This document shows positions 36,001-64,000 of a DNA stretch of 64,000 bases, one piece after another. Source of the DNA: Yuukianura sp. NJ FZ-2021. Lineage: Eukaryota. Position 1 is the stretch's first letter; each line of letters begins with the position of its first letter. Location of the stretch: assembly GCA_046563655.1 (NCBI GenBank), contig CM102285.1:1488001-1552000 (forward strand), given 5' to 3'. Below the pieces are notes generated by a model that had not been told where the DNA came from, did not search any database, and was given only the letters and a program-made list of their open reading frames with translations. A program made the translations under genes and the position numbers.

Positions 36001-39000
36001 CGGTTGTTATTGAATGTTTGAAAAACGAAAAAGAGCAATTATCCAAAAGCTACTTTAACCGTTGCATTTTCACTTTTCACAACGAAATGAAGCGAAGAAT
36101 TTAAGTTGACATTTTTCAAGTCCTAATTGAAATCCAATAAGTGGCTTTTCTGTTTTCTTTTTGTGGTAATTTTTGTATGAAAAGGTGAAAGGTCAAAGGT
36201 CGCCCTGATCGGCTTTTCTTGAGATTTTGAAGAAGCTTTTTCTAAAGCCGCTTTCACAACAATACGCCTGCACCGCAGTCTTGAAATAATGCGATTTAGT
36301 CCAAAACTTTAAGAAATCTGGACATGAATGTGCAGTGGGCGGGAAAAGGACAAGAACAACAAAGTTTAAAAATTGAGCCTTTGTTATTATCTTTGAAGGT
36401 GAGATAAAGGGCCCTCCTCTCTATTTAAGGGCCTTAAGTACCCGCGTCTTAAGTGCTTCACAAGGAGAGAGAGCCCTTAACAGATTAGGTTTCTCGAGAT
36501 TGAAATTTTTCAAAATTCAAAAATAAAAATACGCCGCCATGCCAGAGAACATAAACTTTAGTACTTTTTTGCCAATTAAATTTCGAGGAAGAAGGTGAGT
36601 TGGTGCTAATTAGGAAGATGCTCTCTCTATTTTTTTGATTGGGGGTGAGAAAATTCAAAATGGCGGGAAACCATTATGTTTGTTTGGTCAAACTGTTTGT
36701 TTCATTAGGACGTGGAGGAGATTGGACGAGGTGATAAAAGGTGGGCATGTATGAAGTACTCGAAAAAATTAAAAAAAAGGAAAAGTAAATTTTTTACATG
36801 AAAATAATTAGACTTTTTCCGAAAAAAGTAATAAAAATAGCAGGCGGAAATGGAGTGTTGAAGGTAGGTTGAGTCATAAAAAGTCTATCACTTTTATATA
36901 GTTGAAAATAAATCAAAAAGTTTCCACCACAACAGCAAAATTAGAAATATTTTCATTTACTATTTTTTTCATTCTTCAACAATTTTGAACAAAAATAAAA
37001 ATAATCAAAGTCTGAACAAATTATTGAAAGTTTTTCAAAATTTATTGCAGAGAAGTTTGAGTCGTTTAACAAAAATTTATTTTCAGCGTTACAAAAAAAA
37101 ATCGATTTCATCAAATTCACATTTTTGGGAAATAATTTTGGTCAAGCAGTGTGCACCAGGCTTAAAGTTTGTGATATTTTTTATGTTGTACTTTTTTGTT
37201 CGAAATTCCGTTAAATTGACATTTCAGCATAAAGTTAATTAAAATTATTCGATTTCTTCTAAATTTTTACACCAGTTGTACCAAGAATGCAATTTTGATT
37301 ACACAAAACTAAAAAATGCAATCAAAAGTTTTTAAAGTTTCGCAGACTTGCACCTTGGAATTTGGAATCTGCAGAAAAACTACATTGTTGGTCGTTTTTA
37401 GAGGAATCTGCACACATAAAAAAGACTTTTGTTGTTGGTTTCGCATTGTTTAAATTGTTGCATTGTTGTGAAGGTACATTGACATTGCATGACTACCATC
37501 TTCATTCTATCTCGTTCCTTCTCACTTACTGTTTCGCTCCTCTGCTTTACATGTAGCAAAAAGTTCCTGAACTATGAAGTATTTTTTTAGTTACTGATTG
37601 TTCTTACACTCCTGATGACACTTGAACATGACTTTTGACCAAGTCACTTGTCCATTGTCATTTTTCATACCATGAGCGTAGTCTAACGAGGTGTTTAGAT
37701 CCGCTGAGACTATGTTCACTCTATGTAGAAGTCTTCTCATTAAGAGTGATTATGACTTGGATTTTGGTAGTTGATGACTGTAATTGAGCATTGGAGTTTA
37801 AATGAGGACTGAATAGTAATGAATGGCCATACAATGACCACGGAAACCCAAACTAACATAGGTGAATAACGTAGAAACCTATTTTGTTTGACTAGCCGAA
37901 CAAACACGGAGTCAAGTGTACAGAGCAAGTGTAGAAAAAGTTTCGCGCCGGAAGAGCAACAACTTGGACTTTGGCAGTCTGATTACTTTGTATGTTAAAA
38001 TTTCAGCTGGTTTTGAATCTCGCCCTTCTTAGCTCCAGTGTTTTTGACTTCGCGCTTTTGGCGCGAATGTTTTTTTGCCTTTGATAATTTTTTTAATTTC
38101 AAATCTCGCTGTGTAAATTTTTCCTGTTCTTCGATCTTTTTTTATCTAATCAGTGTTCTTATTTTGGTTTCTCAGTTTAAAGTTTTTTAATTTCGCGCTT
38201 TAGTGGTTTTGGGTGTTGAAATTTTTGTTGAACAGCTCTGTAGAAGTTCTTTCTCTGCCAAATTCTGTATTATTTATGAGACCATTGTTTTGAATGTTTT
38301 GAAAAGTCAACTCCATGAGAAATGGACATAAAATATGACGGTTCGACGAAGTAAATGCGATGATGATGATAGCGTGTGGGAGGGAACGGAAAACGGCTGT
38401 AGTACAATGTGTAACCCATCATTCCATGTTATGCAGTAAACGCTCTTCGAAAATTCACAATTCCTCAAATATTTTTCAAAAAGTAGTTTCCAAAAACTCT
38501 TAAATTAAAAACAAAGTATACAACCCTACCACTCACCAAATTTCACCTAAACCAACCAACCAGTTTACCAACGATGGCATGCAGAAATAAATTTGTTGAC
38601 TTTTTTACTGTTAAATTTTCACTTTCAAATTAAAATAGAAACAAAACACGGAATGTTAAAAATTCTTGTTTTAAAGTGAAACTTTCTTTTCCCAGGGCTG
38701 CACACAGCACAATTTTTTGGTTTTAAAAATGTTGTTCTAGTTTTGAAATTTTAGAAATTTGAACACGTTGTTATTGTTCTAGAGGCAGCAGAAGAAGATC
38801 ATCCATAAGTGTCAACATCCTGTCATCTCCTCACAACTTCATTTATCTTTCTCCCCTCCATCCATCGTCTTCTTCCCAAAGGCGCTCAATTTCAAAATAG
38901 TTGAAACTTCCCGCTAAGTCAACGTTTCTTGTCCAAGCACGTCTCTCTGCCTCCAACCTACTGAGAAATTGGTTTCAGAAATTATTATGGGTGGGACAAC

Positions 39001-41891
39001 TTCTCATTTTGTTTTGATCATTTGTTGGACACGGGCTTCTGGTCAATCGACATTTTATTTATAACAGAACCACTGTCACCCTAAAGCTAACTTGGGGCAA
39101 AGTGAGACTTTGGCTTTAGATGGAGGAAAATTTGAAAAACTGAAGTTACACCCATTTAGCCGGGCTCGAAATCGAACATTTTAAGTTTCATAATTTAGGA
39201 GGGCGTGACACAAAAGTTGAGTTTATTGGGAACATTTCTAGTTTTGGAAAAAACTCAAACAGTATTTTGTATTCTAAATGTCCAGTTCTACTGTAAAAAC
39301 AAACCGAAACTCGATTTTAAATAAATTATCAAAAACTATGGTTCTACGGCTAATCCAACTTGAACAGAATCCAAGTTCCCGCACTTTTAGAACAACTTTT
39401 CAAATAACTTCAAACATGCAAATCATCACAATGCGCAAATACACATCAATTCGAAAAATTTTGTTCGTTTCAGCCATAACATGAAATCAACAAAAAAAAA
39501 TTTGTTTTAAGCCTGGTACATACATCCAGCGAGGTTTTTTAGCTGCTCTCTTTTTAGTTTTTGTACAACTTTTTGATTCTTTTTTCAAAATTTGGATCGA
39601 CATTGTAGAAAATGAAAATGAAATGGAAATAGTGTTGGTGTAAATGTTGATTAGAACAAGGTTTGTCATTTGCCATTCCCAGAGCAGAGTCAGGGTTAGA
39701 CAAGAAGTGCTAAAATATTCCTTTGGAAATGAATGTGGACAGGCGGAAGAAATGCGAGAGTTGGTCTAATGATGCCTTTGTTTTTCCCAGTAGCAGAATT
39801 AACACGACTGAATATTTTAGCAGTTAGGTTCAAACATTCGTTAACACTGGAGCAGTGTAGTACTATGTGCTGGATCTACACACGCCTTCACTCCACATCA
39901 ACATACATTTCCATCACAAGTAGCTCCATTTGGAAATTTTCCACCTCTCCATTTCTCCTCATAATTAATGAGAACCTCCACAAGAGACATAAAATGTCCA
40001 AACAAACTGGAAAATTCTAAATAAAATTAGTTCAAACAAGTCTTTACTGGTTTCTGGAACTAATTCCTCTTCAATCAATCAAGTACAAAAACCGCAAAAC
40101 TTCTAGCAGCAGCGGAATTTCAATGATGTGTAAACCGCGTGTTAAAAACAAAAAAAAAACATTTTTTTTTAAAACAGGAATTTTTTATTTACAAAAAATT
40201 TTCAGTGTTTTGGTTAAATTTGGACATTTTCGACACAAAAAAAGAAAAACTGCAGAATTTTTTTTTTACATGTTAGTGCGAACGCGGCTTAACTGAGGCG
40301 GGTTGACAATGCAGTGTGTATCACGCTTTAGATTTTTGCAAACACTACGTTTAGTTTCAAATTTTGCAAAAATTGCAAACATATCCCATGTATATGCTCC
40401 AGTAAGCACAAATTTGTTTAGGATTTTAGAGTTGTGCGCATGACATTTGTTAGGCTTGGCACATGTTGGCGCATGCGTGACTTCTGCAGGTAAAGAAATG
40501 AGTGACATGCATTGTTGCCAACTTCAGAATAGTTTTGTTTGAACAAAGAACATAAGTAGTTTGTTTTGCAACAATGTTAACTCTTTTTTAAACAAGGTTT
40601 CGATGATGTTCAAACAAGAACCAAGTTCAGGATTCTACGTTGGATGCATGATGCATGCTGTAACTTTTAGCTTGCGGGAAGGAAGGTGTTGCGTGCTTGA
40701 CTTTTGAGGGATGAGCCATGTTATTAGGATTGTTAGTTTTAATTATGTATTAAGTCTCATCTTATACAATGAAAATATCAATGGAATGCACATGCATTAT
40801 CTGAATTCTAATATTTTTCAAATACTCCCGCTCTCCTCGTTCTTTCCCTTCCGGCCAAAACCTGTACGCACATTTTCCAAAAATTAAAGAAAAAAACAGG
40901 AAATTACTCAATTCACTTTCGGCATGCTACACTGCCTTTCTACTCAAAAAATACACAAACAGCTTTTTCAAATTTTGCTTTTTTCAAAGTTAACGATTCA
41001 GACATTAATTTGACATTTTTGTGTGAACGAGCCTTAGTGTGCTAAATTTTAAAAATTTTCGAATCCTATTGATTGAATCGGTAAAAATTATTAGTGTTGA
41101 CAGTATTATGCTCGTTTTTGCGTGTTGTGTTTGAATCGTTTTTCGTGGAATCGGGGTCATGATCACTTTTTTAGAGTTGTGCGCAAACGATTCCAAGTGC
41201 CTTTAATTTATTCAATCATCACCATTTTCCACTCGTCATGCAAGGCATAATCTGGTTTAAGTTGTGTATTATTCTGAGGGCGTTGGTCTTATCAAGCTGT
41301 CATGCATCAAAAGACAAAACCCCTTACGAATTAATCACAAATACTCTGAAGTTAGTGTCAGGTGAGAACAATCGTGGAGCCAAAATTTAAAAAGTGTAAT
41401 TTTTTGTTTCAAATGTTTTTTGAAGTGAGAAAAATGCTTAGCATAATGAGAAATGGAAACCTGTCATTGACACTTTCCAACACACCATCACAGGAATTGT
41501 AATAAGCAAAGAAACAATCAGCATGAGGCCAATTTCCAAGGCTTCCTAAACCACAACTTAGAGTTACCCGTCCATGATGGACGGAAATTTGTGGACGGCC
41601 GTATTTGGACGTCCAACCTATCTTGACGTACAACCAACAAGCGATTAGAGATTGCCTCAAAAGTATTATATTTTGGACGGAATATCCGTCCGTGCACGTA
41701 TCCGTCCGGGCAAATCCGTCCACGATCTTCGTGTATTACGTTTAACAGGAAAACAATGGAAATGGTTTTGAAATTGTGAAGGAAGTAACTACTACAATTG
41801 TTGTATTTGTAAAAATTTTGGCGTCTGTTGTCATTAGCATTTAAAACAGATGGAAGAACATTGGAGAAACATATGCTTCTAAATACCACTT

Positions 41892-41935
41892 TTCTGTGTT
41901 TTAGTCATGCTGATTCTGTGTTTTAGTCATGCTGA
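41892..41935. repeat. Exact 22-bp tandem duplication
   Basis: TTCTGTGTTTTAGTCATGCTGA present twice, head to tail. Confidence 0.95.
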
Positions 41936-44900
41936 GCAAAAGATAAGGCTAATGGAACGTACTTTGCATAGAAACGAGCGACATTTAACACCCATTTAGA
42001 TATTTCAAATCAACCGGCAGTACAATTTAAAAGTTTAAAATTCCCACTCTTTCCTTGTTGGCTTCCTTACATCCAAGGTGTTTAGGGAACAATTAGAAAA
42101 TAGAGTAAGAACGCCAAATCTTCAACATCATGCGCGCTAATGTTCAAACTTTTACCTTGAACTTTACCAACATCAGCATATCTCAAATGCAAAGAACATG
42201 AACATCCATAACGCTAAAAAAGGAAAACCGGTATATAACGTTCTAAAAAAAACGAAAACACGTAGTTTTCGTTCGGAAATATCTTACCGGTAAACTTATC
42301 AACGCATAGCATTGCGTTGATAAGCATGCGTGATGGTAAGATGAAAATAAAATTACGTTTTGGACAATTATAGTAGAGTAACGTACATTTTTTTTACCAC
42401 GCGGTACGCATAGTTCCGTCAAAATTTGACATGTTGTAGTAAAAGCTGCTTATATTTTTTATTACTTTTTTAATGGTGTCGTTTTGGCATTAAGTTTTGA
42501 TTTTATTAGGATTAAGGTTAGCAAAAAATTTCAAAAAATGAGAATTTCGCGTGTAATTTTGAAAATGTTTGTTTAGAGTGACCTTAATTTGGTTTGAGAA
42601 ACGGAGTGAAAACATGAAAAAAGTTTTAGGCTACACACATACTAAAAAATTTGAAAGCTAAATTTCTCTCTCTCTTGTTTTTTGTTGTTATTGCTATTTC
42701 ATAATTTTTATTTGAATAAAATGAAAGTGATAGATGGAGTCATGAAAATCGGATATTTGAGTGATTGTGCGTTAACGCACTTCCGGATTTTCGTGTTTCT
42801 GTGATAAGGCTTACTTTTTTTCACAAATCCATCAAAATTTGCTACACTATTTTCCACTTGACTCAAATGAGGACAGAAACGCAAATTGGAAGTTTGTAAC
42901 TCCCGCCTCCTTGGAGTTTATCTTACTTCAAGGAAACTTGAATTTTACACCTTTTCTCACCAAAATGTCACTCGCTTGACAGTTGAGACAAACCCTGCGA
43001 GTTTAAATTTGAGCAGGAAATTTAAAAAAAACGGAACTACATGCTACATAAGGTTACATAGTAAGCTTTTCCTAATCTTCCTCCCACATCTTCTTACTTT
43101 TCTTGTAACCAGATCCTGTCTAATTAAAGTGTTGAGTTCATTTAAACTGAACTTCCTGTCATTAGGATTTCAGTTTTAAGCTCAAGAAAAAACATATTTC
43201 ATGTTCCAAATTTTTTAAAACTTCCGCTCAAAATCTTAACTTGTGTTTGAATCGAATCTAAGCCAAGATAAAAGATTTATGGATTGAATGAAAACCATAA
43301 TTGCACGTAAATCTTAACAAAAAAAAGAGAATGCATAGTTCGTGTGCACTGGAACAAAATTTTGCTTTTGTGCACAGCAACTGAACATTACCAGAAAATT
43401 TTGTTCTTACACACCGACAAAGCTTGAAATTTTGGCCAAGTTTGGAAAAAGCATTAGCTGAATTTTAGACAATTTTCTAAAAAAAAAATTTTTTGTTGAA
43501 CTCCATTTTTGCTTGCTTTGCCGAAGGATTTCTGCAGAATGGCAACGTTGTTAGTGTACGGCAGAATGTCTGCAATGCGCAGTAGACGTATTTAAATGTT
43601 CTGCGCAATTTGGACAAATTTAGCACAAAATTGTTATAGTTTTGCAGAACTTCGTGATTCCTGAAGTAAATTTTTGGTTTTCAAGCTCCCGTAGGATAAA
43701 AAAGTATTATCAGGTTTAGTTTTTTTTTAATTTTTTAATTTTTTTTTAAATAAGCGCGCCGTTTTCGCGTCATAGATTTTCTGAAGAATTTGAAAGTTGA
43801 ACATCGTGAGAACAAGGGAATAATGACGGATAATTATAAGAAACATTTTACTTCTCGCGCCAGAAGCCTTGTTTGCGTGTTTTTTAATTGGAGCGCTCAA
43901 TGCGGAGGATGGAGCGGGAGGAGGCGGGCAACTTTAAATTTGTGGTTAACTTTGAGTTTCCGTTTTGTTACAAGGTTTATTCACTCTTGTGCCTCTTTCT
44001 TCAGCAGAAGTTAGGTTGTACATTAGGTTAGTTAGGTTTCATGTTAGGTTTTGGAGGTTACTAAGAAGGGGTTAGGTTGAAGAAAGTTCATAATTGATGC
44101 GAAGGGGTTAAGGGGGAGGGCCCTTGTGTGTGTGTGATGATTGACAACATAATCTCAGTGTAAATTACGGTTTTCGGGAGTTTGTGAACAGTTTTTCGTG
44201 AGATTAGGATTTCATAGGCTATCCCTACTGTGCATTTCCTTTTACAAAAAAGAGTTGTGCGGAATAGTGCTGGCGGGTGGATAATTTTTTTTTTTTGAAA
44301 ATTCAAAAATTCCCTCCATATCCTTTTCAAAATGTTTCACTTCTCTCCTTACACGGCTCCTAACAAAATTTGGACACATATAATTAATTGCACGCAATCC
44401 GTTTTCGTACAGTTGTTGTTAACTCAAGTTGCCAACATGTGTAACCGCACTGTTACATCATGTTTCAAAAATCTCTTTGTTTTAAAAATTTTGAACAAAA
44501 AATTCATTCAAATTCCAAAAAAACAAATTAAATATTTCATGGAAGAATTCAAAACAATTGAGTTGTTTAATTTTCAAAATCGTAAATTTCAAATGTTTTT
44601 CCCAAGTGTTTTTTGTACGCTAATTCACAATTTTAATTTTTGTACCATTTGCTCACATTCAATTTTTTTTTTTGACATTATGTTGATGTGTTTTGTAAAT
44701 CAAAATTTTTTGACAGTAAATTTCAAAATTCCGCGCGATAAAGCCGTACTGAATTTAAATTTCTGTCAATCAATCAAGTTTTTGCTTCCAAAAAAATTAT
44801 GTAAGCCGCATAATTTGTAATTCAAATTTGAGCAAGTTTGGAGTAAACGCGTGCGCAGCTATTTGAAGAACATTTCAAAATTAGTTTCTCTCTCCAAATC

Positions 44901-46204
44901 TGGTGAACAAATTTTGTTTGTTTTTTGTGTAATTGGAAACTGTAATTACAGTTATCAAACGAAGGAGTCCAAAATAAAAATTTCCATTTTAATTTCGAAG
45001 TTGATGAAGCTAATTTTGGACTGTTTTGAGTTGTTAAACTTCATTTTACTTGTTTTCCAGCAGAAGCAGCAGCATATTTTAGTATAGTGTGAGCACATTG
45101 TAATATAGTGTTAGTATGTTAGCAGGGATGCAAGGCTAATCAAGTTGTCACTCAAATGTTGACAGCTCTTGAAGCTTTTTGGGGGTTTGGGGTTTAAGGT
45201 TGTTCAAGGAGCGGAAATTTATGAAAAATATGACGAGATTGAATTTTCCCTCCAAAAACCGGTCTTTTTGTATAACATGAAGAACATAGCGAGAGACGTG
45301 GAGGCTCTGAGTAGAGGAAAACAATGAAGACTTGTGACATCTGCCTGTCTACTCAAGTGTAAGTTGAAGTGCAAAGAGTCTGAGCTTATGAAGATACGTT
45401 CATAATTTCCCGCCTTACAAATATTTCAAAAAAAGTTGTTCTGTGTATATAATTACTTTTTGGCTTGTTAATTACATACTTTACACCTTTAGAAGCCATA
45501 GTCTCTCAGAGGACATGCGCCTCACACTTGTGTGAGTGACAAGTAGACATCTCGACTACAATGTACAGAAATGTTTCGAAATTTCAAATTTTCCTGTCAA
45601 GCTACTTAAACTAATTGGCGCTCTTAATTTTCATTGTTACTCAACAGTTACTCACAATCGAGAGTAACAAATAGGTCAACACTTGTATACAAAACGTCTT
45701 TCAAAATTTTTACATTATCATTAAGTGTAAAAATTTGTGTTAATTAACACCTTTTGAAAACAAAAAAAAAGTTTAACTTCATTAACATAATCCATTTCTT
45801 TCAAAGTATCCAAAATTACAAAACAATTTATAGCGTAAATGCCAAATTTTGAAGGAATTTTCTTGTAAGAACAATTTTTTCGCAGCATTTTTTGATTATG
45901 CACAAATTTTTCTCCAAACTTGAAAAAAACGGAGAAATTTTTTGGATTTAGATTTGGATAGATTCAAAATTTTGATGTTAACAGCAATGAAAGTTAAACG
46001 TCAAAATTTCAAAAATTTGAGCAATCACAAGCAGACGGAACGTTTGGCGGTTTGAAAATTCAAAAATTCAAACAGGTGAATAAACAAAAGTGAGAAAAAA
46101 AGACAAGGAGCCGTTTGAACTTTTTTTTGAAAAGTGAGCACCTTTCTTACGGTAGAAAATAAACCGGTTGTAAACCGCCCATACTGATAATAGCGAAGCA
46201 ATAG

Positions 46205-46431
46205 GCCCCCCGAAGGGGGTTTGTTCCCCCCACTTTCCTGCCTCCCCCCCCGGGGGAAGTGGGGGTGTGTTTTCCTCACTTTCCCGCCCCCCCCCCGGGG
46301 AGTAGGGGTGTGTTTTCCCGCTTTTTTGCTCCGCACCCCAGGAAGCGTAGAGATGTGTTCCCCCCACTTTCCCGCCCCCCCGGGGTAGTGGGGGTGTGTT
46401 CCCCCCACTTTCCCGCCCTCCCCCCAGGGGG
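46205..46431. repeat. GC-rich minisatellite, about 5 units of 42-46 bp, inside the HINE-like element
   Basis: Repeated CACTTTCCCGCCCCCCCGGGG..AGT.GGGGTGTGTT units. Confidence 0.85.
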
Positions 46432-46435
46432 TTTT

Positions 46436-46855
46436 GACAGGTGAGACGTGACAGCTGAGGCGTGACAGGTGACACCCGGCAAGTGACACTTGAGGGTGAC
46501 AGGTGACACGCGGCACGTGGCAGGTGACACCCGGCAAGTGACAAGTGACAGGTGACACCCGGCACGTGACAGGTGAGAGGTGACACCCGGAAAGTGACAG
46601 GTGACAGCTGACACCCGGCAAGTGACAAGTGACACCCGGAAAGTGACAGGTGAGAGGTGACACCCGGCAAGTGACAGGTGACAGCTGACACCCGGCAAGT
46701 GACAGGTGACACCCGGAAAGTCACAGGTGAGAGGTGACACCCGGAAAGTGACAGGTGACAGCTGACACCCGGCAAGTGACAGCCGTGACAGCCGTGACAG
46801 GTGACACCCGGCGCGTGACAGGTGAAGTGACAGATGAAGTGTGACAGGTGACAGT
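46436..46855. repeat. Compound minisatellite built from GTGACAG and GTGACACCCGG(C/A)AA modules
   Basis: Dozens of GTGACA cores. It explains the repetitive CHLPGV/SPVT ORFs on the minus strand. Confidence 0.95.
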
Positions 46856-47253
46856 TGAGTGTGTTAGTCAACTGCGTAATGGATTTTTTGCTAAGCAGAA
46901 AACCAACTACCATGCCAATTGCCTTTCCAGTCTCACAAGCAGAGTCTTTGTTACATACACTTGCATTACAAATGACCTTTAAAATCCATTTTGACCCGGA
47001 AACAGGTGACCTAGGGTCACACATTCCACACAAAAGTTGTTAGTCTCAATGAGATGAACAACTTTTGTAGAGGTCATTTTCCATGTTACCGGGGATGAAA
47101 CCGGTTGACCTTGACCTTTGACCCGGAAGGAGTTGACACCCGGGGGTCATATTCAATAGTGACCAAGCCCGGGTCATGACATGGTCACTGGTGAAAACCG
47201 GAATCAAATCGGGCCAGTAGTTTCTGAGATAATTAATCTGGACAGACAGACAG

Positions 47254-50983: not shown

Positions 50984-53900
50984 CGAATACAATAAATTCG
51001 TCATGGCTTTTGAGGAGATCAACAGCTTCTGAAGAGGTGTTGATCCAGGTGACATTTTGGTTTTACAAGGAAGCACGAACGTCCATGTCCGTAGATGTAG
51101 CTTTTGAAAAAGTGACAAGCGAACCATATCCATAGCATATGTAAACAAAAAATGTTCTCCAAAAAGAAAATTGTAACGTTTGAATTTTCCCTCTGAGAAA
51201 TTTGAACGCCCAAGTCCATTCCTGGCATTGTGCTCCTCCTGGCGTTCCTCCTCCGTTCTGGTTCTGACGCTTCTGCTGTTTTGTGAAATCAACAATGACC
51301 AAAATGTGGCTTTTGTAGTGGTTGTGGCACTTAGCCAACCTCCAAAAGCCCTTATTTATGTCCTTAATTGACACAAACACCCTAAAATATGAGTGTGCAC
51401 AATGGGAGGGACCCCTTCAAGGGCCCCCCTTCATTTGTTGACACAGAAGAGACTTTTTGCAACATAACATGGACTAACTGAAGACAATGTTCAGGAGTAG
51501 CCGTTTTACGATTTATTGTTGGAGGTTTTTGGATTTGTTTGGCATGTTACGATTTCACGAAGGGAAGTTTTTGAAAACGAAAAAAATTGAAACCTCCCGC
51601 GGTGATTCGTTCCGACCGAAAAAATGAAACCTCTTTTTAGCTTTTTGAATTTCACCAAAGCGCAACGGTTGCTTCGGTCATTAATTCACTCTCAATAAAA
51701 AGTGTCACGTACATGTGTATAAAATATGCTCATACAGTAAGCTTTTACAAAAAATTTTGTTGAAAATAGTCTTTCAAAATTTTTTGAATAGGAGAATAGC
51801 GGCAGAGCAGATGAAAAGACCGCGAGATTTCGAATGTTCAAAATTCTAAATGGAAGTACTAGCGGTAAACCCAGAATTCCTATAATGGACTAAACGAGTA
51901 TACTCAAAATTTAAAATAGAAAATCTACAAAAATTTGTCTAAAAAAGTTTCACAAAAATGCATTTCAGAAATTAGTCAGTTTTCACGTTTGTGCTAATTA
52001 TAATTATTCAAATCTTAGAGAGAGTAAAACAGAAATGGCTTGAAATTTTAAACTTTTGAAACTTTTTCTAAGTTCCACTTTTTGTTGTACTCCTCTCACA
52101 AACATAATTGATAATGTGATTTAGTCTTAAAAACGTATGTAGTTATAGTGAGAAGACGTTTTTAGTGAAAATTTGAAACAAAAAGGAAATTTTTAGAGCG
52201 CGGGAAATTTTGAATCCGTCGGGAAGAGAAATTAGAAGAGGTTTTACTCCGCCTAACTTTCTCTTCTCTAGAAACTTATTTTCACTCTGCGTGACTAAAA
52301 AGTTTTTATTACTTTCTCCACAGCTTCTCAACAAAAAAAAGCAGCCGTACTTCAACCACTCGAAACTTCCTTAGTTGAACCACAGTCTCTGAGCAGCATT
52401 TTGTAACCAAGAAGCTCATCACAATCGATCCGAGCATGAGCATTTTTGTAACTACGCGGGTTTTAGTAATACAGCAACTGCTCTGTCGTGTCTAACCTTT
52501 TGTCATCATCCCGTGTTAGACATGAGACACTCTGGGCGATGCACAGATGAAGAAAAGAACAGCGCAAGACTTTAATTAGAGCAGAAAGTGAGGGAGAAAA
52601 GAGGCGGAGCTTGTGAGAGAACCTTGATTTATGGAGAGGCTGACACGAGTTTGTGCGGGAATTTTAAATCTCCCACTTTGCCGCTTCTCAAGCCCTTCAT
52701 CTCTCAAACATCAACTTTGCATTAAGGAGAAAGCAGAGCGGAAAGTTGGAGGGAAATTTGAATTTTTAAAAGAACTGTAGAAAACTTAACGCCTCTTTCT
52801 CTCTCCCCACCCCTACTGCCTAACGTTCAAAATTGTTACAGGAGTTAATTGGATTCACCCAAAAGGAAAGTTGAGAAGGTAAATGATGATGATGATGAAG
52901 ATACTTTGTTCCTTCCAGACCCCCCCCTACTGCAGCAAGGGGGGGGGGTCTGGAAATAGTACTTTACTATGAAGAGTGATGTGCTGGTGTAGGATGGTGG
53001 CCCCCTTTACACCCCCCCTCTCACTCTTCAACCCCCCCCCCCCTTCTCCTCCCCCAAGCTATGCGACCGAACCATTTTCTCCCTACTTTGTAAACAGAGA
53101 AGGGATGCGGATTTTGGAAAGATAAATCTCTTGATTTTCATCCTTTAAGTCTATTTTATTAATGGAAAAGTGTTGAGGCGAAAAATCCTCTTTTCCATGC
53201 ATTTTCTAACGTAAATGGCAAAAGAATTCTAAGCTCCTAGTTCATCATCAATGACAAAAACTGCAATTTCGTTTATTTATATACAAATTTATTTTCAATG
53301 ACACAAGCTACACTTGCTTGTATTCATAAACAAGTTTATTTAACTGAAATTCAAATTTTCAGCATTTGGTGAAATTCAGAAATTCGAAGTGACGGTGCGT
53401 TACAATCGGTGAAGGACAAAGGATTGTTTCTGTGTTTTCATTATTCAAAATTCAAAATTTTCAAAAAAGAACCGGTTTTTGGAAGAAAAGGAAATTGAAC
53501 TTAGCCGCCGCTTTGAAAAAGACAATAGATGTTTGGAGGAAACGACAATGAAGGTGTATAAATTAATAATTAACACTTACAAATAATAAGGTATCGAACA
53601 CAACAACACAACAACTGGAAAAACGAACAACTCTTCAAATTCAAAACTTCAAACGGCTTTGCCGCCCTCTCCATTGTAACTATTATTCTCCTGTTTGTGT
53701 AGATTTTGAAATTCTGAGGTGTAATGTAATATGTTAATTTGGGAAAAACATGTTTTGGTAAGAAGGTGTTGATTTGCATTGAATAAACTCATTTATCATC
53801 AAAATAATTAGGCAATTTAATTTACAAAATTTATTGGACAATGGAACTTGGAAATTTTGAAAAAAAAAAAATACGTTAAGCTTGGTTGTTTTTAGTCATT

Positions 53901-55394
53901 TTTTGGGGTTTAAGTTGAAATTTGAAATGTTTTGGGTAGTAAAGTTGTGAAGGCGGTAGAAATCAATTTGAGGAAATGAAAGAATTGTTTTTCTTTGGTC
54001 GTTGTGCTTTTGGCTTATGGTGAAAGTGGCATAGGGTGAACCTTACGATAGGTTAGGTTATGTGTGTGTGATATTTTGTGACTAGGGAGCGTGCGTGTGG
54101 GTGAAAGTCTTGCTCATCTACATTTAATCAAGACTGACACAAAAGAGGAGTGTTTACACTACACACCCCTCCATGAATTTTTCATGACTCCAACTTTTAT
54201 TATTACCTCTCCCTTCCACTGAGACCAGGCGACATGTCACTTCGACGACATCCGACATGTCGCCTCAACATCAACCAAAACTACACTACTCACATGGTAC
54301 AGAGTCCTCCTCTCTACTACAAATATTCAGTATTATACGAAAAAACTTAACCGTAAAAGCCATCTTATGTCCCATTGTCTCTTTTTAGTACAGTTTGGTT
54401 CTACAGCATCGCATGATGTTCAGCTCTAAATATATTTATTACACACCTACAGTCACTCATCCACCTCCATCATGGAATTTGAAAAAAAATGCGCCAAAAT
54501 GGCCTCCAATTCTTTGTCAAACTTTAACCGGCCTTCAAAAATAACTAAAACAAAAACTAAAAAAAAACTAAAACTTATACTTTAAGAATTTATTTTTCAA
54601 ATTAGATAGTTTGCCGGTTTTCCTCTCATAAGTTTGGATCTTTTATATTATGGAGAAAGTTAAACTTTCTCGTGCCATTACGTTAGCTAAAGCTGTAATC
54701 TGTGTTTTTTTGTACACTATGTTTCATAATTTTTCTGGGTGTTTGTGAGGGCAGTTCCTGGCGAGGTGATTAATGACACTCGGACGGAGACAAGTCACTT
54801 TGTGTGGTTTTTCCTGCAGGACGTAAATGTCTCCTTGTGTGAAACACTCCGCAAACTACCCGCCACTTAATCTCTCAAATTCACATTCATCTTCTACTTC
54901 TAGCGCTGCTTTGCTTCACAAAAGTTCAACTGGCAGAGCTACTTTATCTCCGTGATCACTGCTTGTCCGTCTTTCTGTTCCTATGGAAAAACCTACTCAT
55001 ATTATTGCCAACGTCAAATTAAAGTGCTAAGCAAGAAAATTAATTAGACGAACTTAACTAAATTTCTTTCCACTCAGATTGAGTCTTGATCGCCTTGGGA
55101 GTAAATAATAACTTTTTCTTCGTTTTATTTTATTAATGAAACTAGTTTTTCGATTTAGACTTCTCTGCACAAGAAAACCAAAGTTAAAAGTGCAGAATAA
55201 AGCACAGTGATCGCTTAAGATAATACTAATTAATAGTCGTTTCTCTCTATAAAACACGTTCCGTGAGAAAAACCAGAAAATGCAAATCCGATTTTGTCTT
55301 GAAATTGTTGTTCAAAAGACGTTGCTTGATCAAGACGAAACAAATTTTGCTTACTTTCATTTAGTTTTGAACCGAATCTAAAGTTAACAATATT

Positions 55395-56601
55395 ATGAAG
55401 CTGCAAATTTTGGCAGTTGTTGCAGCAATTTCGTTTTTGAAATTTTGTAGTTCAAGTGGAGCTGCAGCAGCCGACTACACTCGTTCTGAAAAAGAAAAAC
55501 TGCAGAAAGTGAGTTATTAATTCCTTACATTTTTACATGTTAGTTAAAATATAGTCAAAAAAATATACTAATCCAAAAAGTATGTATTGATAAATTTGTG
55601 TATCTTTTTTTAAGTTTCGAAATATGATGCAACCAAAACTGTACCGTGATTTCATGACGAAGGACAAATACTTAATACGTTGGCTACGGAATGAAAACAT
55701 GAACTTGGAGAAGGCTAAAAGAAAGTTGAGTTGGGTAAAAAGGAATTTTGATTTACAAAATTATTACACTCAAAATAAAAAAAAATGCAAATGTTTTCAA
55801 ATATTTAAGTCTCTTGACTACCGAAGAGAGAACAAAATTGATTCCGTTTTCGAAGAAAATTATCCAGAATACAAAAGGTATTGCAAAAACTCAGTTGATG
55901 GATACGATAGAATGGGAAGACCGAGTAAGTTCAAGTTTAACAAAAATTATCAAAGAAATTTAACTTCTTTTTTTTTAATTTCAGTATTTGCAAGTGACTA
56001 TGGAACTTGTAAACTGCGGGAAATAATCGTACGTGGTCTCAACGGCGACAGATTCAAACGACGAGCTTTTCAAGTTTATGAAGAATTAAGCAAAAGAATC
56101 GCTGATGCTCCTGATAACGTTACAGATGCAATTGGGATTTCCGACACAAGTGGATTTACACTAAGAGAACACGCTTGTGTTTTATGTAAAACAAAAAATT
56201 AAGCATATTTCGAAATTTCGATTTTTTTTATATTTTATGTATTTGTTCACTTTAGGCATACCATTACAACTATTGTACCACAGAATCCAAAATGATCATT
56301 ATCCTCTTCTTTACCACCGTTTTTTCATGATCAACGGTACTAACAAATTATGAAACTTATGAAATTCTGAAGTTAATAAAATTTTGTGTTTTTGAAATTT
56401 TTGACAGTACCAAAAGTTTTTGAAAATTTGTATCAACTGATCCGCGAAACATTTTCGGAAGAAGAAAGGAAGCGCAACTTCGTTTATGGATTCAACAAGG
56501 CAGAATGGCAACCTGAACTCCTGAAGGTTATTGCATCTGACCAACTCACAACGCAATTCGGTGGTACAAAAAGTATGAACACAACACCTCATAAATCTTG
56601 A
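55395..56601 (+). CDS. CRAL-TRIO/SEC14-like lipid-binding protein with N-terminal signal peptide, copy 1 (about 274 aa)
   Basis: Exons 55395-55508, 55615-55734, 55810-55924, 55985-56185, 56256-56336, 56408-56601, all GT-AG and in frame. CRAL-TRIO-N motif DKYLIRWLR..NMNLEKA; SEC14 motifs GYDRMGRP, HYP...FMINVP..F and DQLTTQFGGT. N-terminus MKLQILAVVAAISFLKFCSSSGAAAA. Confidence 0.9.
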
Positions 56602-57637
56602 TCCATTTAGAAAAAAAGGTTTAAAAATTGTTTAAATTAAATTAATTAAAATTAAGAAAAAAGAAAATTAACAGTCTTCTTCAACATGTCGTAGACATGG
56701 GTGTGCAGGAGACTAAAAAAAATCTAAACCTTATAAGCTTTAGCCCATATATGGTCATACTACATGTCCTTAAAAAGGCTTTTTAAAAACTTTAATAACT
56801 TAAAGTTTAAGTAAAAAATGTTAGTAATTATTGTTTTTTTATTACATAAAATAAAACATTAAATATTACATAAAGTACGTGAAATACCTGCTAACGCCTA
56901 TGTCGTTAATAATGTAAAGGTTTGAGTGCAATGTAGGGCTACTAGTACATCGGAAAGCACACAGACAGACAGACAAGGTTAATGCACAAAGTAGCCTTTT
57001 CTACGTAATAAGCGCGTGCAGACTTGCTTGTGAAACTATTTTTTTTTCGATTACTTTTCTGTGTAAGAGAATCAAAGTTAAAATTGAACAATAAATACAA
57101 CGTTGTAATTTTTTTCCAAAATTTTATAGTTTTTATTTTTGAAGCTTAATTTATAAACACTTGGATGAAACTTAAAAAGTAAAGATATATTATTTCGTAT
57201 AATTCTCTTCCGGGGGGAAGCGTTCCTTAAGATGGAGGCACAGATACCAAAGTGCATTTCAAGGCTAATTCTCTGCAAAAGGAAGGACGTGGCTTTTTTG
57301 TATTTATTTTGCTAGTTAATAAAACTAATTAAAATTCATCTCTTTGCAAAAACCTGTTCCGTGAAAAAAGTCACAAGAAATTACAAATTAGCAGGAAATC
57401 TTTTGTTGCCATGACAAGGCTTGTTTAGATCAAGACGCAACAAAGGATGGTTTCGGGTTTCTGTAGAAAAACCGGCCCAGTGCCATTTGTTTGTATGTAT
57501 TTTCTCCGGCCCAATTAATAACGTTATAAAACGTTTTAAATCGCCTGTTTTTTTCACAAATGTGCACAATGTTGCACAATTCTTTCGGCCTTGTGCAACA
57601 TCAAAACTCAAAAAGCTCGAAATAGTGAAACACCTGG

Positions 57638-58272
57638 TATTGCGAAGTAGCGAGAGCTACTTTATGGTTTGACCCTGACTGTCTGTCTGGTTGTCTGCCT
57701 GGCCGTCCATCGACGACAATAATATCACTTAAAACTATATCCGTGGTGGTTGCTATTGAAAACGTTTTATAGTTTGTCTCTTTTTAGAAGGCACTGTTCA
57801 AATTCGAAAGCAATTTCAGTCGCCTTATGGATCGCTAACATAGAAATGACCAACTATCTCGAGTATGACACGATTCCACGTAATTTGGTCGGAATTAAAA
57901 TGATCGGAGGTGAAATGGTTGGAAGTGAATTGGTCGGAAAGTGAAATATTTAAGCAAATCACTTACCAAAATGACTTTTCAACATTTTCATGATTCGACC
58001 TTTCTTTGTTGCGACTATTTCACTTTCCGACCAATTCACCTTTCGACCAATTCATGTTGCGATCATTTTAGTATGCGATGTTATCACCTCCGACCTTTTC
58101 ACTTTCCGACCAATTCACTTCCGACCATTTCACCTCCGATCATTTCAATTCCGACCAAATAATCCATAGCTATCACACTGATTTGACATTATATAAGCTT
58201 TCCGCAGTGTTTTCGGTCAAACGCCAATAGGTCTTTCGCTAGTTACGTATACGCGGTTTACAATCGGTTTAT
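57638..58272 (+). mobile_element. Second, older HINE-like (Helentron-type) element nested in the Spy-like element
   Basis: 5' hairpin AAGTAGC-gaga-GCTACTT, CTGT microsatellite at 57679-57700, 3' subTIR CTTTCGCTAGTT and 3' end GCGGTTTACAATCGGTTTAT, nearly identical to the 3' end of the 46 kb element (GCGGTTTACAACCGGTTTAT). Confidence 0.7.
57872..58170. mobile_element. Foldback MITE (MULE-like) nested in the HINE-like element
   Basis: 64-bp inverted arms 57883-57946 and 58097-58160 with 2 mismatches, built of GGTCGGAAGTGAA-like subrepeats. Flanked by TATGACAC (57864-57871) and TATCACAC (58171-58178), a 7/8 TSD. Confidence 0.75.
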
Positions 58273-58296
58273 CCTCATTAGTATAACTCGTGAAAA

Positions 58297-58621
58297 TGTG
58301 CAATTTAAAAACACAAAAGGTTCGAAACTGTGCATTGTCTGATCTAGAAGGTTTGATCTTGTGCAGTGTAAAAACAGAAAAGGTACGAAGTTGTGCAATG
58401 TTAGAACGTTTTATTCCGGATTGTGCATTGCAAATAACACAAAATTTAGAAATTGTGCATTCCAAAACCGTCAAAAGATTGAAAATGTGCAGCTGGGACA
58501 CTCGGAAGTTAAAAAATGTGCAACATAAAAATTGAAAACTCGAAGATTGAAATTGTGCAACTTCGCCAACGCAAACTTAGAATTGTACAACGTTTGCACA
58601 CAAAACGGTCAAAAATGTGCA
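58297..58621 (+). repeat. Periodic array of TGTGCA motifs with about 31-32 bp spacing and diverged spacers
   Basis: Motif starts at 58297, 58329, 58360, 58392, 58422, 58454, 58486, 58517, 58554, 58584 (TGTACA) and 58616. Confidence 0.85.
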
Positions 58622-58921
58622 TAACAGTGTTAAAAACAATTTTCCTCAAGATGGAAGGAAATAAACGAAAGTTGTGATGTTTTCCGACGAAATATGGTCA
58701 ACTTTGGCGTCCCTTTTGGACTAGAACCCGAAAACGCATCACGCCAATTTTTTGAGCATCGGTTCTACTATAGGGCCACATGACGTCTGTGAAATTTCAG
58801 ACTGTTGCGTTATCGGGTTGATGCTCTTTTCCACGCTGAAAGTCATGTCCGAAATCCGAAACCATCCTTTTACTTACCTACTTTTATTACGTTTTGAGCC
58901 GATACTGAAGTTAACAAAAAT

Positions 58922-60269
58922 ATGAAGCTGCAAATTTCTACCATTGTTGGAGTAATTTTGTTTTCAGAATTCTTTAGTTCAAATGGAGCTGCAGCATCCA
59001 ATTACACAATGGCTGAAAAAGAACAACTGCAAAAAGTAAGTCACTAATCACTCATAGTTCTAATAAATGTTATGAACAAAAATTATTGCCCTAGAATGAA
59101 TGCAATCATAATTTTGTGTATTTTGTTAAAGTTTCGAAACCTGATGCAGCCTAAACTGTACCGTCACTTCATGACGAAAGACAAATACTTAATACGTTGG
59201 CTACGGAATTCAAAAATGAACCTGGAAGACGCAGAAAGAAAATTGAGTTGGGTAAAACTAAAATTTTTTGAATTTCAATTATTGCATTGAAATGTATAAA
59301 AAAACTGAAAATGTGTTCAAAAATTAATAGTCTCTCAACTACCGAAAAGAAAACAAAATTGACTCTGTTTTGCATGAAGATTTTTCTGACTACTACAAAA
59401 GGTATTGCACAAACTCACTTGCTGGACAAGATAGAGAGGGACGGCCTGGTAAGTTCTAGTTTTTAAAAAATTGTAAAAACAAAATCTAATTTTTTTTCAA
59501 AATTTTAGTAATTACAAGTGATTTAGCAACTTGTAAAACGCGGGAACTAATCGTACGTGGTCTAGGCGGCGACATATTTCAACGGCATGCTTTCCAAGTT
59601 TTTGAAAAGCTAAACAAAAGAATCACCGATGCTCCTGATAACATCACAGATTTGATTGGAATTTTCGACTTTGGTGGATTCACTCTAAGAGAACACGCTT
59701 GTCTTGCATGTACCAACACAAAAAAATAAGTTTTCAAAATTTCAATTTTTATTTTATTTTATGTGTATTTTTACACTTTAGGCAAACCACTACAACTTTT
59801 ATATCACAAGTTGCAAGAGGATCATTATCCTCTTATTTATCACCGTTTCTTCCTGATCAACGGTATTAAAAATATTGTGTTTTTTAAAAATAATTGTTTT
59901 GTTCAATGAAAACCTCTCCAAATTTTTGGATTCTCATAATCGTCAGTTTTAATCGTTTTTCATTAAATTATTACATCTAAAGCTAAAGTATTATTGCTAT
60001 TCACAACATATTTCAATAGCCTCATAGAATTAGCAAAAAAAATGTTCTACAAAGTTTTTTTTATATTTTTGATAGTGCCTAAGGCTTTCGTAAGTATTTA
60101 TCAACTGATCAAAAAGGGAGCTTCGGAAACAGCAAAAGAACGCCACTTCGTCTATGGATTCAACAAGGCAGAATGGAAACCAGAACTTCTGAAGCTTATT
60201 GCACCAGACCAACTCACAACGCAATTCGGCGGTACTAAAAGTACAAACGCAATATCTCATAAATCATAA
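58922..60269 (+). CDS. CRAL-TRIO/SEC14-like protein with signal peptide, copy 2 (about 275 aa)
   Basis: Exons 58922-59035, 59132-59251, 59331-59448, 59509-59709, 59782-59862, 60076-60269. Same intron positions and phases as copy 1, frame intact. Confidence 0.9.
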
Positions 60270-60866
60270 TCAAATTTAAAAAGTTTCACAATTTTGATAT
60301 TAAAAGAAATCTAAATCTTATTAGATCTAGCCTACATATGGTCATACTGCATATTCTAGTTTAAAATTTGAATAAAAAATGTTAGTAGTTGTTGTTTTGT
60401 TATTTCATAAAATAAAATATTAAATAACACACAAAGTAGGTAAAATAGCCGCTAAAGTCTGTTTTCTTAATGTAAGGATTGGAGTGCAATGTAGACCCAC
60501 GAAAACATCAGAAGGCACCCAGACAGACAGACAAAGTCGTAAATGCACAAAGTAACCTTCTCTACTTAATAAGCTCAAGTAAACTTGCTTGTGAGACTTA
60601 TATTTTTTTGATTCATACGTTTCTGAGCAAGAAAATCAAAGTTGAAGTGCACAATAAATACAACGTTGTACGAGATCTTCCAAGTTAATAAATTTACTAA
60701 TTAAAATTCATTTCTTTCTAAAAACCTGTTCCGTGAGAAAAGCCAAAGAAAATTCCAATTTTTCAGGAAACTTTTTGTTGAAAAGAGGTTGTTTGATCAA
60801 GACGCAACAAATTTTACTTAGCTACTTTCATTATACTTTGAGGCGAGACTGAAGTTGCTGAAAAAT

Positions 60867-62243
60867 ATGAAGTTGCCAATTTCTACAGTTGTTGCAGTGA
60901 TTTTGTTTTTGAACTTTTTTAGTTCAAATGGAGCTGCAGCATCCAATTACACAAGGGCTGAGAAAGAAAAACTGCAAAAAGTAAGGCACTAATCACTTCT
61001 ATTTATAATAAATGTTACTTAAGTTAAGAAAAAATAATAAAGAAATTATTGCCCGAGAGTGTGTCTAATACTAAATGTGAGTATTTTTTTCAAGTTTCGG
61101 AATCTGATGCAACCGAAACTGTACCGTGATTTCATGACGAAAGACAAATACTTAATACGTTGGCTAAGAAATTCAAAAATGAACCTGGAAGAAGCTCAAA
61201 GAAAGTTGAGTTGGGTAAAATCAAATTTTTGAATTTCAAATATTAAGTTCATATTTAAATAAAAAAGTTTAAATGTTTTCAAAAATTTATAGTCTCTCGA
61301 CTACCGGAAAGAGAACAAAATTGATTCTGTTATACATGAAGAATTTTCAGACTACTACAAAAGGTATTGCAAAAACTCGCTTGATGGACAAGATAGAGTG
61401 GGACGGCCTGGTAAGTTCTACTTTTTAAAAAATTGTAAAGCAAAATCTAACTTTTCTTGTAAATTTTAGTAGTTACAAGTGACTTGTCAGCTTGTAAACC
61501 GCGGGAACTAATCGTACGTGGTCTGGGCGGCGACATATTTAAACGGCATTCTATCCAATTTTTTGAAAAATTAAACCAACGAATCACTGATGCTCCGGAT
61601 AACATTACAGATGCAATTGCAATTTTCGACTTTGGTGGATTTACAATAAGAGGACACGCTTGTGCTGCATGTACAATTACAAAAAAAAAATTTAAGTTTT
61701 TAAAATTTCGAAAGTTTCAATTTATTTCATGTGTAATTTTCTACACCGTAGGCATACCGTTACAACTTGTATATCACAAGTTGCAAGAAGATCATTATCC
61801 ACTCATTTATCACCGTTTCTTCATGATCAACGGTACTAACAAAAAATTATGCTTTTTAGAAACGGTTTTTTTTAGTTAAAGTTTTTCACAATTTTTGAAT
61901 TTTCATAATCGTCTTTTATTAAATTCTTCTTTTTATTTAAAACTAAAGTACTATTGCTGCTAACAATATGTCAATACACTCATAAAATTCACAAAAAAAA
62001 GTTTTAAAACGTTTTTTTTTACTTTTGATAGTGCCAAAGGCTTTTGTAAATATTTATCAACTGATTCAAGAGGGAGCTTCAGAAACAGCAAAAGAACGGC
62101 ACTTCGTCTATGGATTCAACAAGGCAGAATGGCAACCAGAACTTCTGAAACGTATTGCACCAGACCAACTTACAACGCAATACGGTGGTACTAAAAGTAT
62201 TTACACAAAACCTCATAAACAACAATCCATTTTAAAAAATTAG
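60867..62243 (+). CDS. CRAL-TRIO/SEC14-like protein with signal peptide, copy 3 (about 281 aa)
   Basis: Exons 60867-60980, 61095-61214, 61293-61410, 61470-61670, 61752-61832, 62032-62243. Frame intact, closest to copy 2. Confidence 0.9.
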
Positions 62244-64000
62244 TTTCAAAATTGAGATTTTTTTGAAACATGAATTTTATGGTCATACTACAAACGGATG
62301 GTGTATTGGAAAGAAAACTTTTTTTTTGAATTTCTACTGTGAAATTTTTGTCTGCCGTATAAATCATGCTCCATTTTATTATTAAATCCCAATTCTTTCT
62401 CTCTTTCTCTGCCGCTCATAAATCTCCATCACCCTCCTAAAATATGAACTCAAATTCCTCTCCTCCAACCTCCTAAATTAATGTCACTTTTCCTTTTCTC
62501 CAAAATTTCGAAAAAATTTCAAAAAAACGAGATTTCCCTCCACCACAAAAATCTCTCATTTTTGAAATTCAGTCCAAGAAGCTAAGCTTTATTGGCTCCC
62601 TCAAATTAAAAAAAACGATTTGTCACATTTTTTGAATTTCAAAAACACTTTTTGAGGACTACGAAAAGCTTCTTATTGTTGTAGAGTTGTGTAGAATTAT
62701 TTTGATCCTTCATATTTCAACAATGGAGAAGTTGAATTGCTCTTTTGGCGCGTTTCTTTTCAAATTTTGAAAGTTAGGGGATTTGAACAATTTTTTTTTG
62801 CGGCGCGTATTTAGTACAAAATTTTAATACACGACAGAAGTGTTTCTCAGCTGCTTTTGAAAAATAGAGCTTCGTCATTGGTCTAATATGACTTTGAAGG
62901 TGACAGATTTCGAGAGGGGATCAAAATTTTCCTTTCAAAATTTCAATTGACAAATGTAAAATGAAAAAGAGAAGCAGAAAGCCTGTGTTCCATTTCGACT
63001 GCTACTGAATTCAAACAGGTAAAATTTCAAATCCTATTTGAACAAAAAAAGTTACTTCATCCCATGGGGTCGTTTTTGAATTTTGAAAAGCATTGAGTTC
63101 AAATGGGAAAAAAATTTAAAAAAAGAAGAAGTTTCAATTGAATTGGAACAATTGTAGATTGAATTATAGAGCCTATTTATAGCGATTTCAATTGAATTTA
63201 CGAACTCATGTTCTGATTTGTATAGCTTTTCAAAAATAGTTGTAAATTTCAGTCGTAGAGTTCAATTCAAAATTTCCAAAGTTCAAAATTTGAAAATTTT
63301 CAAAATACTCAGTTTCAGTTTAACGGTGCTATTAAAGTGGTCACCTTGGTTGGTGTCATGACTTGTGCAGCTTAGTTTTTTTTTTTCGAAAAAGCAAAGT
63401 TTTTGTAAAATTGTGATTGTAAATTTGTAATGTTTCTTTTGAAAGTGTGGGAAAATGAATAATGTTCAAAATTTGTTTGTTTTGGGATTAGATTTTAGTG
63501 GGAAGTTGAGGTATATGTACAAAACACAACTAAAATTTTCACACGGACATATGTAGTTCACTTCAGGCGTTGGATGGAACTGCGCAGACTCCTCTGCTTA
63601 GATGACTAAAATGTTACAAATGTCCAAAATTGTCATTATGAAGGAAAAAAGGAAAGTAAGACTTTGTGTAAACACTTGATGGGCTTAAGCACAGTACTTA
63701 CTCTTCCTTTTCACGTTCATTTTTACTCCTGATTGTCTCATCTGCGCATACACTCATGTTTTAGAAATTGAATTCTCCCGCGAACATAATTCCTTATTCT
63801 CCCTCTGCTGAACTTAATTGAAAAGAACTCAAATCCCTTGACGGACATTAATCACACGATTCCACTCAAAGGCAAAATGCTATAAGCTCTCACCCACTTC
63901 ACTTACTAGCGCACCACTTTTCAAAAAAAGATTCAAAAACGAATCAGTCAAATTTTTGCTGACTAATCAAAATCCTTGACTTTGGCAAACCTCTTATGTA

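Follow-up and report, generated by a model that had tools for sequence, protein, structure and literature searches.

The window analysed here (i.e., the whole 64,000-nt stretch of DNA) carries three tandem paralogous CRAL/TRIO-domain genes of about six exons each, the middle one of which (copy 2) has its ATG at 58922. A CRAL_TRIO match was obtained for the last exon of copy 2 (59994–60269, E 7.5e-5) and for that of copy 1 (E 9.7e-4), and a protein search with a 202-aa CRAL/TRIO exon stretch (a query that included in-frame intron sequence) returned no matches. Elsewhere in the window, an Iroquois-class homeobox exon is located at 31288–31704 (Homeobox_KN, E 8.6e-18), for which the top named arthropod matches were the springtails Allacma fusca and Folsomia candida, followed by ticks, mites and insects. 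The homeobox matches, together with the tandem CRAL/TRIO genes, indicate an invertebrate host, which fits the host range of the Spy transposons discussed below. A springtail-like host is also consistent with this DNA turning up in a soil metagenome.

The insertion point of a mobile-element copy of 1,423 bp (57445–58867, as read directly from the window sequence) lies 54 nt upstream of the copy 2 ATG. The left host flank reads ...GACGCAACAAA, with its last base at 57444, after which the element starts with GGATGGTTTCGG at 57445. The element ends with CCGAAACCATCC, closing at 58867, and the right host flank opens with TTTTACTTA at 58868. On direct reading, the junctions in full are ...GATCAAGACGCAACAAA / GGATGGTTTCGGGTTTC ... 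GAAATCCGAAACCATCC / TTTTACTTACC..., with the element inside the slashes. The features of the insertion and of the corresponding paralogous sites are as follows:

57442–57444, plus strand: host AAA, left half of the AAATTT target (direct reading; retained by both paralogues as well as by the empty allele)
57445–58867, no strand assigned: whole presumed non-autonomous element, 1,423 bp (1,423-column gap versus both paralogues; same letters skipped by the contig from sequencing run X5)
57445–57461, plus strand: left terminal inverted repeat (TIR), 12 perfect bases (GGATGGTTTCGG) and 16 of 17 when the next five are included (inverted-repeat finder and base-by-base comparison)
58851–58867, minus strand: right TIR (inverted-repeat finder and base-by-base comparison)
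58868–58870, plus strand: host TTT, right half of the target, followed by a fourth T (direct reading, alignment and contigs)
58922–58924, plus strand: start codon of CRAL/TRIO paralogue 2, 54 nt past the insertion point
55342–55347, plus strand: paralogous empty site of copy 1, with intact AAATTT (direct reading, MAFFT)
60809–60814, plus strand: paralogous empty site of copy 3, with intact AAATTT (direct reading, MAFFT)

The inverted-repeat finder reported a terminal pair of 20 nt (95% complementary) if the AAA and TTT were included. Without these flanks, the 12 outermost bases pair perfectly (12/12), and 16 of the first 17 match. The element runs from GGATGG... to ...CCATCC (i.e., with GGA...TCC termini) between host AAA on the left and host TTTT on the right. 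The insertion is situated exactly at the centre of the target, between AAA and TTT, which is a membership feature of the Spy group. Since AAATTT occurs at only 322 of the 63,995 window positions (0.5%), hitting its centre by chance is unlikely. Moreover, when the window was scanned for AAA/GG...CC/TTT pairs spaced 60–8000 bp apart, a 12/12 inverted repeat was found only at 57445–58867, and such 12/12 pairs appeared in none of 100 block shuffles of the window. Pairs with at least 10/12 matches numbered three in the window versus a shuffle mean of 0.46 and a maximum of 4. Given this 10/12 shuffle background, the 10/12 pair at 38881–46142 was taken as a chance pair rather than a second element, and the 10/12 pair at 53421–58867 likewise as chance rather than an element; no transposase domain was matched in the scanned ORFs between 38881 and 46142. 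A BLAST search for a second element copy in the window found none, yielding four short matches only (28–87 nt, 75–86% identity).

The upstream regions of the two neighbouring paralogues show the site without the element. The copy 3 sequence at 60801–60820 reads GACGCAACAAATTTTACTTA, corresponding to both copy 2 flanks joined, and copy 1 at 55334–55353 shows two differences from this string, with its AAATTTT uninterrupted. In a MAFFT alignment of the three upstream regions, copies 1 and 3 share one gap, which measures exactly 1,423 columns (57445–58867). It opens at the first G of the left repeat and closes at the last C of the right one, and in each of the three rows AAA precedes it and TTTT follows. 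The coordinates and quoted strings of the initial annotation thus proved exact on both direct reading and alignment, and its proposals that excising the element restores the copy 3 sequence exactly, and a sequence similar to that of copy 1, are confirmed by these two sites. Since the empty sites keep AAATTT, the AAA and TTT are host-derived and not part of the TIR.

Parts of the stretch were also contained in five public sequencing runs, three of which (referred to as organism A) stem from one sample that is possibly the source of the assembly. The remaining two are one run of organism B (X3) and one soil metagenome from another study (X5). Contigs from four runs (X1, X2, X3 and X5) were placed on 56500–59800, and parts left uncovered in some runs (e.g., 58165–58275 in X1 and X3) were not used as evidence. 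From X5 came one contig of 254 letters, every letter of which was placed: it matches 57392–57444 with no differences and 58868–59068 with one, and this lone difference (within the 201 letters right of the joint) is also present in X2. The contig joins 57444 to 58868, thereby skipping exactly 1,423 letters (with ends GG..CC). No letter at the joint is ambiguous in the sense of fitting either side, and since a duplication of n bases would give n such letters, their number of zero corresponds to zero duplication. Over the same stretch, the in-window paralogues show many differences from copy 2, far more than the X5 contig does. Because the contig is near-identical to copy 2 and the paralogues are far apart from it, the X5 contig is the orthologous empty allele of copy 2. 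Its low depth (2.1) is the main weakness of the allele evidence.

A contig from organism B (X3) is about 92% alike on both flanks (13 differences in 166 letters and 12 in 140), and passes from 57396 to 58868 via 22 other letters, with the element absent. These 22 letters represent a shortened form of the same upstream block, with CAA at the end. As this contig resembles copy 2 more closely than the in-window paralogues do, it probably represents the orthologous site in a related form. Across the two paralogous sites, the allele and the relative's site, zero target bases were duplicated or deleted at the insertion, so the earlier proposal that no bases were duplicated holds. The locus, whose filled site matches two paralogous, one allelic and one relative's empty site down to the base, constitutes a textbook-clean natural example of such an insertion. 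Among the X1 and X2 contigs listed, none bridges a filled junction with 31 letters on each side, and the filled state is represented by the assembly only. One X2 record (record 10) stops following the window at 57431 and has 32 unplaced letters.

The contigs further point to other copies of the element. In total 382 (X1), 285 (X2) and 84 (X3) contigs were placed on this 3.3-kb stretch, most of them less than 99% alike. At the element ends, their depths add up to tens of times the depth of single contigs on the unique flanks, a figure that is not a copy number and that is partly due to a different repeat at 56944–57300. Among the variants, one in X3 is an element without 57587–57830 (3 differences in 310 letters), and another X3 copy carries 396 other letters replacing 57764–58290. 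Two of the listed records belong to other copies and extend to an element end, and both retain the half-target: X2 record 11 matches from 57442 onwards after 310 unlike letters, so that AAA is kept, and X2 record 14 matches up to 58871, so that TTTT is kept. With this copy and these two contig ends, a preference for AAA/TTT across the whole family, as the initial annotation expected from the flanks of other copies, is indicated but not established. A 17-base terminal pattern gave at least 120 stretches in metagenome contigs that were taken as chance matches; among the pattern matches listed, similarity stops within about 19–29 bases of the terminus, and the three preceding bases are mostly GC-rich rather than AAA.

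The element is therefore multi-copy, with variants, and is polymorphic at this locus. Since independent data contain an allele of this locus without it, the insertion is either recent or precisely excisable. The suggestion that the family "is or was active" agrees with this presence/absence polymorphism, with the further copies and with the deletion variants.

The interior of the element contains the following features:

57559–57600, no strand assigned: left subterminal TGTGCA/TGCACA cluster, two on the plus and two on the minus strand (motif count)
57656–57689, minus strand: 34-bp stretch, an inverted match to a high-copy repeat upstream of the gene at 56962–56995 (BLAST, 82% over 34 nt)
57883–58160, no strand assigned: internal foldback with 64-nt arms at 57883–57946 and 58097–58160, 97% complementary (inverted-repeat finder)
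58297–58621, plus strand: array of 10 TGTGCA on one strand, spaced by about 31 bp, period 32 (motif count, periodicity)

The foldback arms are composed of 15–16-bp tandem units. TGTGCA occurs 12 times on the plus strand of the element, a count matched by none of 2000 shuffles, and the motif has the same orientation in the left cluster as in the right array when each is read inward from its end of the element. These repeats may represent putative subterminal transposase-binding sites. At both 34-bp stretches many contigs have loose ends on both sides. The inverted pair that they form (56962–56995 and 57656–57689) was considered as the bounds of another element lying over the left end, and was rejected because 57318–57444 is homologous to the upstream sequence of copies 1 and 3.

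Regarding coding content, the nine ORFs of the element (53–94 aa) matched no Pfam family at E ≤ 0.01 (no match was below E 0.04, and all were far under the cut-off), and no Rep or helicase remnant was found among them by Pfam. A transposase ORF of at least 150 aa was not found in the window. Among 61 of the 156 window ORFs of at least 70 aa (i.e., the longer ones, up to 51.4 kb), none matched a transposase domain, and the only domain matches were Homeobox_KN/Homeodomain and NTF2. An Rfam scan of the entire window gave no match.

Spy transposons belong to the PHIS superfamily (PMC4122938, PMC11304231) and are the sole eukaryotic cut-and-paste transposons described, as far as the available parts of PMC4122938 and PMC4482050 go, as inserting without a target-site duplication (TSD). 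According to PMC4122938, they insert between AAA and TTT without duplication, as proven by paralogous and orthologous empty sites, have TIRs of 9–1,474 bp with a "relatively well conserved" terminal consensus (5′-GGANNNNG-3′), and encode a single-ORF DDE transposase (D(79–80)D(44–62)E, with an N-terminal HTH) in invertebrate hosts. The Spy supplement of the same paper contains 178 "AAAGGA" strings, corresponding to AAA/GGA junctions. The silkworm non-autonomous Spy families measure 844–1,608 bp with TIRs of 10–12 bp, and Spy_PPa of Phlebotomus papatasi measures 1,441 bp with a 14-bp TIR (PMC4122938).

The element described here closely parallels Spy-1_BMo to Spy-5_BMo and Spy-7_BMo of the silkworm, as well as Spy_PPa: all insert at AAA/TTT without a TSD, have empty sites that keep AAATTT, and share GGA-starting TIRs of 10–14 bp, a size of about 0.8–1.6 kb, the absence of a full transposase and an arthropod host. 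It differs from them in having its own TIR sequence (GGATGGTTTCGG), in its springtail-like host (a class not listed for Spy in the part of PMC4122938 available), and in its terminus, which reads GGATGGTT and has the GGA but carries T at position 8 where the consensus GGANNNNG has G. In the accessible part of the Spy supplement, "AAAGGATG" occurs in no string, and no family shown there has a matching TIR. Some published families depart from the consensus as well (e.g., Spy_DPl with GGACATCA and Spy_MDe with GAATAAGG; PMC4122938). The interior is also distinctive, with a foldback of 15–16-bp units and a 10-fold TGTGCA array, whereas PMC4122938, in the part available, reports no subrepeat structure in long TIRs.

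A further comparison is offered by cgSpy of Colletes gigas, for which insertion without a TSD has been shown experimentally, with about 60% of insertions at AAWTT; its authors report that promoter regions are preferred and, to a slight degree, gene 5′ ends as well (PMC11304231). The copy analysed here resembles cgSpy in the missing TSD and in the AAATTT-type site, and lies 54 nt before a start codon. cgSpy differs in being autonomous with long TIRs (3,462 bp, 467-bp TIRs and a 689-aa transposase; PMC11304231 Table S1), versus 1,423 bp, 12-bp TIRs and no ORF for the element here. One Spy element has been developed into a gene-transfer tool (PMC11304231).

We therefore consider it quite likely that the element belongs to the Spy-type cut-and-paste DNA transposons (PHIS superfamily) as a non-autonomous member, recognised here from its structure and target site rather than from its enzyme. 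The initial annotation had arrived at the same Spy-like identity. Its account of Spy as targeting AAATTT and creating no TSD matches what PMC4122938 and PMC11304231 state, its observation that no transposase ORF is present here was upheld by the ORF search and Pfam, and the AAA/TTT site and zero TSD add to the support for its assignment.

According to the mechanism that this Spy-type reading would imply, a DDE transposase of the Spy clade, encoded at another genomic locus, would act in trans by recognising the element ends, and perhaps also the subterminal TGTGCA repeats. The enzyme would cut the element out and then attach its two 3′-OH ends to the target strands at positions that face each other exactly, between A and T. 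Without a stagger there would be no gaps to fill and hence no duplication, as has been speculated for Spy (PMC4122938). An ancestral origin and precise excision are equally possible for the empty allele, and both fit this proposed mechanism. No new mechanism is added by the present locus.

The same structure could also result if a TSD-less TIR transposon were moved by a non-Spy transposase, i.e., one from a PHIS branch not yet described, or an unrelated one that converged on blunt insertion at AAATTT. This is an unlikely but not negligible explanation: no transposase was found in the window or element ORFs scanned, the terminus deviates from GGANNNNG at position 8 (PMC4122938), and the published Spy surveys are transposase-based, with no springtail in them as far as the available parts of PMC11304231 extend. 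However, apart from position 8, the structural traits fit Spy, including the GGA...TCC termini and the exact AAA/TTT position, and no other TSD-less cut-and-paste group is described in the available parts of PMC4122938 and PMC4482050.

That there was no mobile insertion at all, with the 1,423 bp being ancestral and deleted elsewhere or with the junction being an assembly artefact, is very improbable. The shallow depth of the empty-allele contig and the unbridged filled junction among the listed contigs lean in that direction, but deletion would require the same end points in four separate sequences, at the edges of a perfect TIR and with no repeat at the break. Moreover, a de Bruijn false join requires a shared word at the joint, and since none is present there, the X5 joint is not explained in this way. 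The sequence is, in addition, multi-copy with variants elsewhere.

Helitrons are not known to carry TIRs and have 5′-TC...CTRR-3′ ends. A Helitron or Helentron-type rolling-circle element, inserting into A/T or T/T without duplication, would share with the element its lack of a TSD and its insertion between A and T, but is hardly credible in view of the perfect 12-bp TIR at the very ends, the GG...CC termini (not 5′-TC and 3′-CTRR) and the lack of any Rep or helicase remnant in the element ORFs by Pfam. ISL2EU and PIF/Harbinger elements are DDE cut-and-paste transposons whose TIRs usually begin with GG or G/A and whose targets are AT-rich, and they generate a 2-bp AT and a 3-bp TWA duplication, respectively (PMC4482050). 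An ordinary PIF/Harbinger or ISL2EU miniature with a hidden TWA or AT duplication, or with a TIR that includes the AAA/TTT, is comparably implausible: the GG-starting TIR and the AT-rich target are in the style of this superfamily, but AAATTT(T) stands complete and without additions in the allele and in each of the paralogues, and these 0 bp as opposed to 2 or 3 bp refute that explanation for this copy.

With the Spy-type assignment as the preferred reading, these data suggest that a springtail-like genome harbours a non-autonomous family of the Spy type, the host group being the only new point. The most recent survey cited here lists 182 Spy elements from 172 species of Arachnida, Insecta, Cnidaria and Mollusca (Diaby et al. 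2024, PMC11304231), and in the accessible part of its Table S1, neither "Collembola" nor any of three springtail genera occurs. A search for literature joining Spy, transposon and Collembola found none, and the present element is possibly the first of the Spy type noted in springtails. Transposase-based surveys miss families that have only non-autonomous members (Han et al. 2014, PMC4122938), and structure alone can reveal non-autonomous families where transposase-based searches see nothing. The locus points to a Spy-type family that was recently mobile in a soil arthropod resembling springtails, a group absent from the available parts of the published surveys.

Finally, the insertion is located directly 3′ of a block of about 130 bp that is conserved among the three gene copies. 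Its position 54 nt before the ATG and adjoining this conserved block places it in the promoter or leader, and since the element parts the block from the coding region, it probably alters the promoter or 5′ leader of paralogue 2. A bolder and rather doubtful extension would be that duplication-free transposition of the Spy type is currently active in springtails, via a transposase too divergent or too rare for homology-based surveys, and that the polymorphic copy alters the promoter or leader of this tandem CRAL/TRIO gene. If true, the polymorphic copy could be a natural regulatory variant. No disabling lesion was seen in the copy 2 gene model, which consists of inferred exons; each of these is in open frame, and their splice-site dinucleotides line up with the corresponding ones in the other copies.

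The middle of the non-autonomous Spy-type element (57445-58867) may, judging from its sequence, be a nested or exchangeable module, since run X3 (i.e., a public sequencing run of a relative, organism B) holds one copy of the element in which 396 different letters replace 57764-58290. The middle carries a foldback whose edges show no clear duplication. This foldback and the gene features of the window are the following:

57883-58160, foldback inside the element, with 64-nt arms (97% complementary) built from 15-16-bp tandem units
55376-62340, three CRAL/TRIO-domain paralogues (copies 1 to 3), in tandem on the same strand, with about six exons each
29789-30031, exon with an NTF2 domain (E-value of 6.8e-5)
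31288-31704, exon with an Iroquois-class TALE homeobox, within the stretch 29789-32357

Directly 5′ of gene copy 2, a high-copy repeat that is distinct from the element was identified at 56944-57300, with a core at 56962-56995. In the comparison of contigs from the public runs with the 56500-59800 region, the summed contig depth of this repeat (which does not equal copy number) was near the top for that region and approximately level with that at the left end of the element. Among the contig ends listed, about 20 contigs per run diverged at both sides of the 34-bp core. An inverted and diverged version of the core was found by BLAST within the Spy-type element itself (57656-57689; 82% over 34 nt), and a string resembling it, seen through ORF translation only, appears to be present near 60520, upstream of copy 3.

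Closer to the insertion point, a 211-letter contig (depth of 112) from run X2, a public run of organism A, matched 57252-57431 and then departed from the window 13 nt short of the site where the element is inserted, leaving 32 letters unplaced. This contig may represent another haplotype or a paralogue.

A second AAA|GG...CC|TTT pair was observed at 38881-46142, with 10 of 12 bases inverted and a separation of 7.3 kb. Block shuffles yielded a mean of 0.46 such pairs at 10/12 per window, and the pair probably arose by chance; the ORFs scanned between its ends gave no Pfam match to a transposase domain. The block at 46025-47039 on the minus strand (GC content of 0.44 vs. approximately 0.35) displayed long open frames in three phases, rich in repeated CHLS/PVTCRVSP-like units. 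It yielded no match in a Pfam scan and looks, from its sequence, like a minisatellite with a coding appearance.

Regarding the CRAL/TRIO paralogues, their starts resemble signal peptides (MKLQI...). For copy 1, a 202-aa exon stretch served as the query in protein searches; this query includes in-frame intron sequence, and no relative was retrieved. Finally, the homeobox exon is followed, within 29789-32357, by an ORF with a RIWSLADLA motif, which we take to be Iro-box-like, and the top named arthropod matches of this exon were two springtails.
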